Part shown: piece after piece, positions 19,501-22,201 of the stretch
Position numbering within the stretch: position 1 is the stretch's first letter
How the letters are laid out: every line of letters starts with the position of its first letter
Origin: Marsupella aquatica
Taxonomy: Eukaryota > Plantae > Marchantiophyta
Length of the DNA stretch: 64,000 bases
Direction of reading: 5' to 3'
Assembly: GCA_973895155.1 (NCBI GenBank)
Contig: OZ316891.1
Location: forward strand, 27,379,561-27,443,560
The notes under the pieces: model-generated
What the model saw: only the letters and a program-made list of their open reading frames with translations
The model's database searches: none
What the model was told of the DNA's origin: nothing
Position numbers and translations under genes: made by a program

Positions 19501-22201
19501 TCAAACCTGATGTGCTGAAGTGAAGAAAAATACCTGACATAGAATCCGCCCCACCAGAGGAATCTCCATTGGCAGGACAGCTTCCTTCTCTAATTGTAAG
19601 AGCTCCATCTTTGATAGGGAATCCTGAAAACCCATCGTTGACGAGTCTTCTCTCACCTTCCTGCTCCAGAGAAACGAGTGCCGGCAAACCACTAAAGAGC
19701 TGCTGATGGTCGCCCGCATTCTCATCGAGCGCCGTGAGCTGGGTTATGACAAACTTCGCGTTGCTGATGAAGAACTCCCGGTTGAAGAAATGCCCCGACC
19801 CTCCCTGCTTGCTGAAAGAGCGAGACACTCTGGCAATTAACTCGTCTAAGGGCAAAAGAGGATCTCCGCCCTCGGGTTGAGATAAAGTCCTATACACCTC
19901 AACGCACACTTTGGCCTTGTCAAATAGGGCGTTGAACACCTTCTTATAGACTCCAGATGGCTTAGTGCAATAGTATTCAGCCAATTCCGTGCAGAAACAG
20001 ACAGTCGGATTATTTTTCTCGTACCCCATAATCCACCAGGACACGACAGGTCCAAAGCCATCGCACCTCACACCCTTCTCTTTGTCCAGAAGATTAGAAT
20101 TTGGCAAAACTAGGGCTGAGATATACAATGGGAAACCATCATCTATGTGCTCGACAGAGCGATGGTTTCCATTCTCATCATGGATTACAAAATCTAGGAG
20201 CCTTCGCTGCGGAGTTTGATCTTCTCCAGGCTGCGCCGTCAGCACAATGGCGACTTCCTCGTCTTCGACAGTCTTCTCTTCCTTCGCGACGATGAGACTT
20301 TCCTTCTCATCTATCTGGATTCTCTTCTCCTTGAAATTCGTCCCGGCAGCTGCCCTTCTTGGGCGACTCGAAGGCCGCTTGTAAACCATAACGTCCTCAT
20401 TGTCATCTGAACCAGTCTCCTTGTCGCTGGTACAGTAGTCGGAATCCCGGTCTTCCTTGGGACTGCCCATGTGATCTGGGCTGAATTCATGAGCTCGCTT
20501 ACGACCTGAGAGGGTCTCCCTGACTGGCGGTTGGAGCTCGCCGTCGGCTTTACAGGAATGCAAATGTGTATCAAACTCAGCGTCCGAACCATTATCAAGT
20601 CGATCCTTCCGGTGAGCGTGAGGGACACCTTTGCTGGTTCGTGCTCGACATTCCTTTGTCTCAGGAACAAGTGCGGAAGTAGGAGCGGCGGGTTTGGAAT
20701 TGAGCACTCCTGCCACCTTCTGCAACTCCTCGATCCGCTTCTTCCCAGCATCAGTGAGTGGCCGCTTCCGAGAGGGTGTCCCGTTCGGAGTACCTTTAAT
20801 CTTTTTGTTTGATTTGCCCTTGGGTGCCAGATGCTCTGCTTCCGCATTCTGTCCATGATCGGAAGAAGGATCCGGTATTCTCACCAAAAGGTTAGTGGAA
20901 GGAGGGACAGAGGTGGTGGTCAGAGACGGATTTCTTCCAGGCATATTGGCACCCGTGAATGTGCTCGGACTCACCACTTTCCTCTGAGGAGAAGATGCCA
21001 ACAACCGGCGCCCAGAGGTAGTAGCAACAGGCGAACAAGGCAAAGAACGAGCTGTGGAAGCAGGTGAGAGTGCTTTCACGGGAAGGGCATTTGGGTTCTT
21101 AGGTGTCCCATTGGTGAGCTGGAAAGCTGGTTTGAAGTACTCTTCGTCTTCTGGGGATGAATTCTCGAACGGGACTGTGTTGTTGATGCCGCGGGAGAAT
21201 TTGATGCGGCCTCCACTGCCGTGGTGCTTCTGAATGTCTCGAGGATTCGCTAAATGGACTCTATGATTGTTCGATTTATTGGGAGTAGGTAGATGCTTTT
21301 GAAATTCGCGAGGTGAAGATTCCGAGTTATTCCCTTCGATGTATGTCAAACATTGCTTCCAGGACCGGAACTTATCACCTGCCACAACACAATCACAGCG
21401 GATGAGAATTAGCAACCTTGTTTTCGGATTCAAGGTACTAAAAAGCAGTGTCTCGTAGACAACCGAGTAGAAACTGAATGCGGGGTGCAGGAAGAATAGT
21501 TCTCAGGTCTGATCATTGGAAGATGAAAAATTAATAAGCAACCTTCACTGCATTGTAACTGACGCTGAACTGCTCAAACAGGTAGTAATGCAGAAAAGAA
21601 AAAGACTAGTGCAACCATATACAAACGAAAGGAACAGTTGATTCCATCAACGGAATGTTGAATGCCAATGAGTTCTCTCGGATTCATGAAAAGGCAGTGG
21701 ACTTGAGAGGGGATCAAAGGAAGGAAACAATAGAGCAGCAGAGATAGTGACGTATCAACGTTCTTTTGACGAAACTTGGAAGGAGAATGCGTTTACTACC
21801 ATGAAGGAGATATTGCACAGCATCCTTTAAAACAAACGCACCGACGAACGAGGAACGAGATTACGTATCCAAGGACGACAGAGAAGGTATACAATGCCAT
21901 TCATCCAGACCTCTTCGTAAGATGCGTACTATGCAGACAGTCACTCTCAATTCCCGTCATCGTTAATCCGACCTTCGTGCAACTCGCAAAGATTAGGAGT
22001 GTACAATTCAACAAACCTCAACGCAAGGAAAATCAGCAGGAGCTCTCCGACAGGCAAAGATCACAAAATATGATTTCGAACAGACCGACCTCTAGGCGAT
22101 ACATATGTGAATGTGGTGCGTCCACTGGGGTGCGTGCATCTGACCACAGTGCCGCCGTGCTGCTCCCACAATCCCTCCCCCAATGCCTCAGATGGCGCCA
22201 T
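13572..22201 (-). CDS. MET1: DNA (cytosine-5)-methyltransferase MET1/DNMT1 with an extra N-terminal MBD-like motif and long disordered linker, 12 exons
   Basis: Exons 22201-22090, 21378-19534, 19012-16929, 16713-16549, 16326-16119, 15898-15787, 15640-15493, 15279-15082, 14887-14609, 14418-14257, 14107-13889, 13700-13572, all GT-AG and in frame. Contains [17 protein letters not shown]1 ([13 protein letters not shown]); RFD2 ([43 protein letters not shown]); two BAH domains; KAKGKGK linker; motif [18 protein letters not shown]; catalytic [63 protein letters not shown]. The first exon is the least certain part. Confidence 0.95.

Follow-up and report, generated by a model that had tools for sequence, protein, structure and literature searches.

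A probable MBD-fold domain, divided by an intron, heads the MET1 DNA methyltransferase of a liverwort

The stretch of DNA analysed in this study (the window, 64,000 nucleotides) comes from the leafy liverwort Marsupella aquatica (GenBank assembly GCA_973895155.1, contig OZ316891.1, positions 27,379,561 to 27,443,560), and its minus strand carries a gene for the CG maintenance methyltransferase MET1. By spliced alignment to the closest database protein, the MET1 of Calypogeia fissa, an open protein of 1886 amino acids was assembled from 12 GT-AG exons (22201 to 13572), and 1549 of the 1886 residues (82%) are identical to the Calypogeia sequence. The product has RFD and BAH domains, two of each, and a C5 methyltransferase domain whose catalytic PCQ and ENV motifs are intact, the same layout (RFD-RFD-BAH-BAH-C5 methyltransferase) and the same preserved motifs as in Arabidopsis MET1 and Marchantia MpMET, and in a quick tree of 30 rows it is sister to Calypogeia (Shimodaira-Hasegawa-like approximate likelihood ratio support, SH-aLRT, 100) inside the liverwort clade (96). 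It can be regarded as an ordinary member of the MET1 family with one unlisted domain: in contrast to the published layout of plant MET1 it has an additional N-terminal segment of ~45 residues, split by the first intron, which most probably adopts an MBD fold.

An earlier note, made from the DNA letters of the window, had proposed that exon 1 (22201-22090) joins in phase to the acceptor at 21378, and that the second half of the domain shares exon and frame with RFD1. Both proposals were borne out: the intron is of the GT..AG type, the frame is kept through the joint without a stop, and RFD1 (Pfam PF12047, E 1.6e-27) lies in the same open exon as the second half. The NCBI model of Calypogeia fissa MET1 opens with the same N-terminal domain at the same start, and its residues 1-44 map to exon 1 (tblastn, E 6e-11). 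In a DNA contig of a related organism (X3) only one of 191 exon bases was changed, at a third codon position and synonymously, whereas the intron differed at 30 of its 711 bases and by 5 indels (exon versus intron, Fisher p=0.012); the same organism (X3, X4) has ~30 extra bases at 20534-20535, in the exon 2 linker. The contigs of all four runs compared look genomic and contain no intron joints, which has no bearing on expression. Additionally, the metagenome loci L002-L006 encode MET1 proteins sister to those of mosses (L002 was placed in the tree, support 99), and donor and acceptor were found at the same phase-1 Gly in all four loci inspected (L002, L003, L005, L006). An older Marchantia model (P0129) reads through an insertion exactly at the site of intron 1, the other Marchantia model joins the two halves, and a read-through at this position recurs in P0186. 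Seven proteins of 1667-1670 amino acids carry the domain unbroken; two of them were placed in the tree and group with ferns, and we infer that the 5.6-5.9 kb contigs behind the seven are transcripts. On this comparative support for the splicing, exon 1 is almost certainly a real coding exon.

The resemblance to the MBD fold was seen along several lines. With E values up to 10 allowed, all 12 isolated domains matched the Pfam MBD family (PF01429, gathering cut-off 21 bits; best E 2.9e-5), the Calypogeia domain reaching 21.0 bits; that of Chlorokybus, also isolated, scored 13.6 bits. Full-length land-plant carriers scored 11.7-19.6 bits, under the cut-off in all 8 that were scanned, and therefore annotations omit the domain; none of 4 proteins lacking the segment matched MBD; full-length Chlorokybus MET1 gave no Pfam MBD match at E 0.01, and the two halves of the window domain, searched separately against Pfam, gave none either. 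A profile was made from 12 MBD repeats, and on it the joined N-terminus of the window protein reached 18.9 bits, a score attained by none of 1000 shuffles (maximum 8.1), with exon 1 alone at 0.4 and exon 2 alone at 11.1 bits. The top PDB sequence matches of the domain were MBD4 and MBD2 (E 0.003-0.007), and by language-model features the 10 best named matches all fell in the MBD clan, with scores under 0.9. The cut-off of DUF7028 (PF22970) was not reached, 2 of the 12 members matching it with a best E of 0.025.

Fold models were obtained with AlphaFold2 for the orthologous domains of Calypogeia and Chlorokybus rather than for the window's own sequence (predicted local distance difference test, pLDDT, 78.6 and 77.5), and both consist of helix, hairpin and helix. 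All 34 rows listed in Foldseek ranks 1-40 were MBD, TAM or SETDB2-MBD chains, and the top VIA match among 48,161 chains was AtMBD6 (Z 5.0, root-mean-square deviation (rmsd) 1.4 A over 43 residues, 33% identity), which also headed the matches of the second orthologue model (Z 4.7, rmsd 1.7 A over 44 residues). Two Trp, a Gly-Gly pair, a Cys and a Tyr are invariant in the domain; in strand 1 the Gly-Gly takes the place of the canonical Gly-Trp, and according to the models the invariant Trp of an added N-terminal helix probably fills the core. The intermediates P0191 and P0195 bridge the Gly-Trp and Gly-Gly forms. Each of these lines is modest by itself, but taken together they make homology to the MBD fold highly probable, in agreement with the suggestion of the earlier note that an intron-split MBD-like domain heads this MET1.

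For the reading of methylated CG (mCG) by MeCP2 four residues are essential, R111, D121, Y123 and R133; E137 holds R133 in place, and loop L1 ends with a basic residue that contacts the backbone and matters for affinity (PMC8811898). The first arginine finger is R111 in MeCP2, R166 in MBD2 and R92 in AtMBD6. Residues were counted over 10 land-plant rows, the Tyr also over 19 rows including the algal-type ones (Table 1). The C-terminal half of the domain aligns gap-free to MBD2 and MBD4, and it contains the second finger, Arg42. In the N-terminal half the first-finger position, counted from the Gly-Gly that replaces Gly-Trp, falls on His24. Consistently with this register, the modelled strand ends at residue 24 (Calypogeia numbering) with the loop next to it, a loop deletion of three to four residues suits the ranges matched structurally with AtMBD6 and MBD2 (as judged from ranges, not from coordinates), and an Arg at this position with an Asp seven residues further on occurs in Chlorokybus, P0195, P0186, the Gly-Trp bridge P0191 and the CW-type plant MBD P0150. 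Loop L1 is four residues shorter than in MBD2 and AtMBD6.

The earlier note had taken the Arg of 'VVR' (Arg21) together with Arg42 as the retained mCG-contacting pair. Their spacing of 21 residues is correct; nevertheless Arg21 is out of register, its position lying within strand 19-24 of the Calypogeia model, and it was rejected as the first finger, so that only one of the two fingers is kept in the liverwort. The replacement of the Asp and Tyr of the DVY motif by Thr, recognized in the same note, was found as described (Thr30, Thr32). An Asp at the position of MeCP2 D121 is present in Chlorokybus, P0195 and P0186; Chlorokybus retains both arginine fingers, the Asp and the Glu, though not the Tyr, and two further relatives share this Arg-Asp-Arg-Glu set in register with it. 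Ferns and gymnosperms have an Arg at the Asp position, on the DNA-facing strand, and Lys plus Arg exceed Asp plus Glu in 8 of the 8 domains counted. In this plant, then, the domain is in all likelihood not a canonical mCG reader.

Regarding its distribution, a profile search placed the domain at the extreme N-terminus of MET1 in Calypogeia (2 proteins), Marchantia, Riccia, Ceratopteris, Adiantum (2), Ginkgo (Gb_24436) and Cryptomeria, and in Taxus as a cut second half. When 1.84 billion representatives were searched, the full-length MET1 of Chlorokybus atmophyticus was added, as were short N-terminal open reading frames with the domain signature, and the survey of MET1 N-termini that the earlier note had called for thus covers liverworts, a moss-clade locus, ferns, gymnosperms and Chlorokybus. 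Among angiosperm-named proteins the domain was present in 0 of 93 examined (91 among the 120 listed of 409 matches, and 2 others; best E 1.7), and it was not found in the MET1 models examined from Physcomitrium, Ceratodon and Diphasiastrum. Diphasiastrum, Ginkgo Gb_34186 and three gymnosperm-clade proteins were not counted as losses, as their first exon may be missing. Ten models or open reading frames (P0015, P0016, P0017, P0018, P0023, P0025, P0061, P0130-P0132) start with a Met at the domain end or immediately behind it, and these may be missing their first exon or represent shorter isoforms; at one Ceratopteris locus both a long and a short model exist. The liverwort, fern and gymnosperm domains are 40-47% identical, and the neighbouring linker does not align.

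The gene tree follows the species tree, therefore the simplest history is that the domain was present in the streptophyte ancestor and was lost later, which by sequence comparison would mean inheritance from algal ancestors. The ancestral form would have had both arginine fingers with the Asp and the Glu, as kept in Chlorokybus, and it may have been a true methyl-CpG reader; land plants would then have shortened loop L1 and lost the first finger, and the domain would have disappeared from angiosperms and some mosses.

When Calypogeia residues 5-60 were used in a word-based search, the query itself was the only one of 16 candidates to come back, and in a metagenome scan with the short algal-type frames 0 of 237 pattern matches were confirmed; P0181, P0194, P0195, P0207, P0228, P0230 and P0240 are accordingly not established as MET1 exons. 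P0204 and P0186 continue weakly into sequence resembling the MET1 linker or the RFD start (E 0.22 for the P0204 stretch). About half of the 96 representative matches were unrelated repeat proteins agreeing with the first half only and were dropped, and the one match among 78 in the viral-contig scan (L001) was a chance agreement of 16 residues in a repeat protein. P0191 and P0168 are phage Mu F-like head-morphogenesis proteins with MBD-fold repeats (40 and 24 bits on Pfam MBD), and in one P0191 repeat, which is very similar to the MET1 domain of the algal type, an Arg and an Asp are spaced much as in a reader. P0236 (600 amino acids, without MET1 domains) contains a comparable degenerate MBD segment twice, once complete and once as a half copy.

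Table 1. Features of the MET1 gene, residues of its probable MBD-fold domain, and other elements of the window (residue counts over land-plant rows)
Feature	Position	Strand	Remarks
MET1 exon 1	22201-22090	minus	112 nt, ATG at 22201, phase 1, encodes Met1 through the first base of Gly38; contributes the N-terminal helix and the beta-hairpin
Arg21 ('VVR')	22139..22141	minus	mid-strand; Arg in 2/10
His24	22130..22132	minus	inferred first-finger position; Arg in 0/10, Arg in Chlorokybus
Arg28	22118..22120	minus	backbone-contacting basic residue, end of loop L1; Arg in 10/10
Thr30			position of the Asp fixing the first finger (MeCP2 D121); Asp in 0/10
Thr32			position of the water-network Tyr (MeCP2 Y123); Tyr in 0/10, and in 0/19 of all rows
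MET1 intron 1	22089-21379	minus	711 nt, GT..AG, phase 1, divides the Gly38 codon
Domain second half, Gly38-Glu52	21335..21378	minus	third strand, Arg42, SWK helix
Arg42			second arginine finger (MeCP2 R133); Arg in 9/10
Gln46			position of the Glu fixing the second finger (MeCP2 E137); Glu or Asp in 6/10
MET1 exon 2	19534..21378	minus	domain end, Ser/Pro/Lys-rich linker of ~370 aa, RFD1 (about 20221-19817)
MET1 exon 3	16929..19012	minus	RFD2 (about 18785-18303), BAH1 (about 17717-17304), BAH2 start
MET1 exons 4-12	13572..16713	minus	BAH2 end, C5 methyltransferase domain; from the spliced alignment to Calypogeia MET1
Exons 4-8	16713-16549, 16326-16119, 15898-15787, 15640-15493, 15279-15082	minus	
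Exons 9-12	14887-14609, 14418-14257, 14107-13889, 13700-13572	minus	
Direct repeat	22408-22444		exact, 18 nt, spacing 19, ~200 bases upstream of the MET1 start codon
High-copy repeat	23771-24006		contig depths sum to thousands (4/4 runs), many loose ends; probably a small element derived from a transposon; lies ~1.6 kb upstream of the MET1 start
60S ribosomal protein L4 exon	6100-7212	minus	
Open frame, 831 codons	30376-32871	plus	strong base skew, no Pfam match
Cation-efflux family frame	59259-60953	minus	

Compared with canonical MBDs (MeCP2, MBD2, MBD4, AtMBD5/6), the MET1 domain is alike in its beta-hairpin, short third strand and helix, in a P-x-G-x-K-F-R-S-type motif, in the second arginine finger and in the basic residue at the L1 end. 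It differs from them in the Gly-Gly pair, in the added helix with its invariant Trp, in a Trp-Lys after the Ser, in being fused to a writer and, in land plants, in the shorter L1 and in the lack of the first finger, the Asp and the Tyr. BAZ2A/B TAM, the SETDB2 MBD and AtMBD1 are likewise MBD folds without the full finger set, connected with methylation-independent DNA binding, protein binding and unmethylated chromatin, respectively; unlike the MET1 domain they reside in other host proteins, and the identity in the fold matches is 16-22%. A C-terminal extension like that of TAM (two strands and a helix) may be lacking: conservation of the MET1 domain ends at the helix, and the models cover 58 residues. 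The CXXC domain of animal DNMT1, which prefers unmethylated CpG, is also a small accessory DNA-binding module on a maintenance methyltransferase, but its fold is unrelated and its position is other than that of the MET1 domain. MET1 is described as being without CXXC (PMC12474915).

Several precedents bear on what such a domain might do. In MBD2 the R166K substitution lowers mCG affinity about 30-fold, and BAZ2A's TAM domain binds the DNA backbone whatever the methylation (PMC8600091); AtMBD1, which has one finger, localises to unmethylated chromatin, and in AtMBD2/4 methyl binding is weakened by the loss of either Arg (PMC10808059). Because of these examples the liverwort domain is unlikely to read mCG. 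We tentatively favour, with somewhat less than even confidence, the view from residue analysis that it serves mainly as a flexible, methylation-independent DNA tether and not as a methyl-CpG reader, because the backbone Arg and the second finger are kept, the domain is net basic, and a linker of ~370 residues follows. Carried on this low-complexity linker before RFD1, the domain would keep MET1 near DNA or nucleosome linkers, with contacts running via Arg28, Arg42 and neighbouring basic residues; the tether would raise the residence time, and the RFD/VIM signals together with the catalytic domain would supply the hemimethyl specificity.

A number of observations weigh against this picture. Concerning the fold, the best Foldseek E value was 0.021 and none reached 0.001, and dsRBD-like and other alpha-beta folds scored Z 4.3-4.5, within 1 of the AtMBD6 match, at rmsd values of 2.8-3.9 A and identities of mostly 2-20%; an identity as dsRBD, raised by these VIA rows, was rejected on rmsd, identity and the sequence evidence. 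Concerning the register, profile-profile alignment gives the N-terminal half another, low-confidence placement, in which Arg21 again misses the first finger. Furthermore, the second finger is Tyr in Cryptomeria and Taxus and Lys in several relatives, the net charge is small in liverworts (Lys plus Arg 6 versus Asp plus Glu 4 in the window, 6 versus 5 in Calypogeia), and most of the invariant residues look structural or could line a protein-binding face.

The last point leads to the strongest competitor of the tether, namely that the MBD fold has turned into a docking module for a chromatin or replication factor that partners MET1, in the way that the SETDB2 MBD binds C11orf46; their complex is itself among the fold matches (Z 4.1). 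The invariant Trp44-Lys45, Cys47 and N-terminal Trp set the domain apart from canonical MBDs and persist even in relatives that have lost both fingers, and the weak charge of the liverwort domain would suit such a role; however, the backbone Arg is conserved in every land-plant row and the second finger in all but one, and ferns and gymnosperms add their Arg on the DNA-facing strand, so docking is possible but the less likely reading. A broader proposal, that the green-plant DNMT1/MET1 began as a reader-writer fusion whose algal domain, with both arginine fingers, the Asp and the Glu, binds methyl-CG directly and whose one-finger land-plant form reads the hemimethylated half-site, a VIM-independent way to maintenance methylation for non-flowering plants that angiosperms gave up, we consider improbable.

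The narrower idea of a built-in reader of methyl-CpG or of a hemimethyl half-site, feeding back on MET1's own mark in this liverwort, which builds on the reader-writer loop of the earlier note, seems improbable. It has on its side the MBD fold, the retention of Arg42, the fusion to a CG maintenance enzyme and the Arg-Asp-Arg-Glu set of Chlorokybus and its two relatives, and since one finger contacts the CG of one strand, a half-site reader is conceivable. The window protein, however, has His at the first-finger position, Thr at those of the Asp and the Tyr and Gln at that of the Glu, its L1 is shortened, and the loss of a single finger strongly lowers methyl binding (PMC8600091, PMC10808059); for the algal form such a loop is plausible. 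Quite improbable is a decaying land-plant vestige of little function heading for loss. MET1 can evidently work without the domain, as in the 93 angiosperm proteins and the models from Physcomitrium, Ceratodon and Diphasiastrum, but the identity kept across liverwort, fern and gymnosperm beside a linker that does not align, and the single exon change against 30 in the intron of the related organism, argue otherwise. A chance likeness, whether of a small alpha-beta domain of other origin or through a wrongly joined exon, might be read from Pfam scores at or below the cut-off and a fold Z of only 5, but it is very improbable, as sequence profile, language-model features and fold all point to MBD, P0191 and P0195 link the two Gly forms, and the intron position recurs in distant plants.

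The domain sits on a protein which has been described without it. The Marchantia MET1 itself has the domain, though the MET1 descriptions list none in the text consulted (10.1101/363937, PMC12474915). The MpMET preprint (10.1101/363937), the MET1 cryo-electron microscopy paper (PMC12474915) and a survey on genes of plant methylation (PMC6624907) do not use the term 'MBD' once in their main texts, and it is equally absent from the main text, section 5 and one supplement of a eukaryote-wide DNMT survey (PMC12344493); parts of PMC9861306 and PMC8566409 were also among the sources of the comparison. In the open literature searched no description of an MBD on MET1 was found; the supplementary figure of the MpMET preprint, figures generally, subscription journals or InterPro-type records may already show the segment.

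The textbook layout of MET1 comes from Arabidopsis, and it appears to be a derived, shortened form. Many MET1 models which start just after the domain may be without their first exon. The accessory domain in the MET1 of Marchantia, Ceratopteris, Ginkgo and Chlorokybus offers a handle on the targeting of CG maintenance outside the flowering plants, and it is testable in Marchantia, where MET mutants exist. The series from an algal form with four residues intact through a one-finger land-plant form to loss represents a natural experiment on the decay or repurposing of a reader module.

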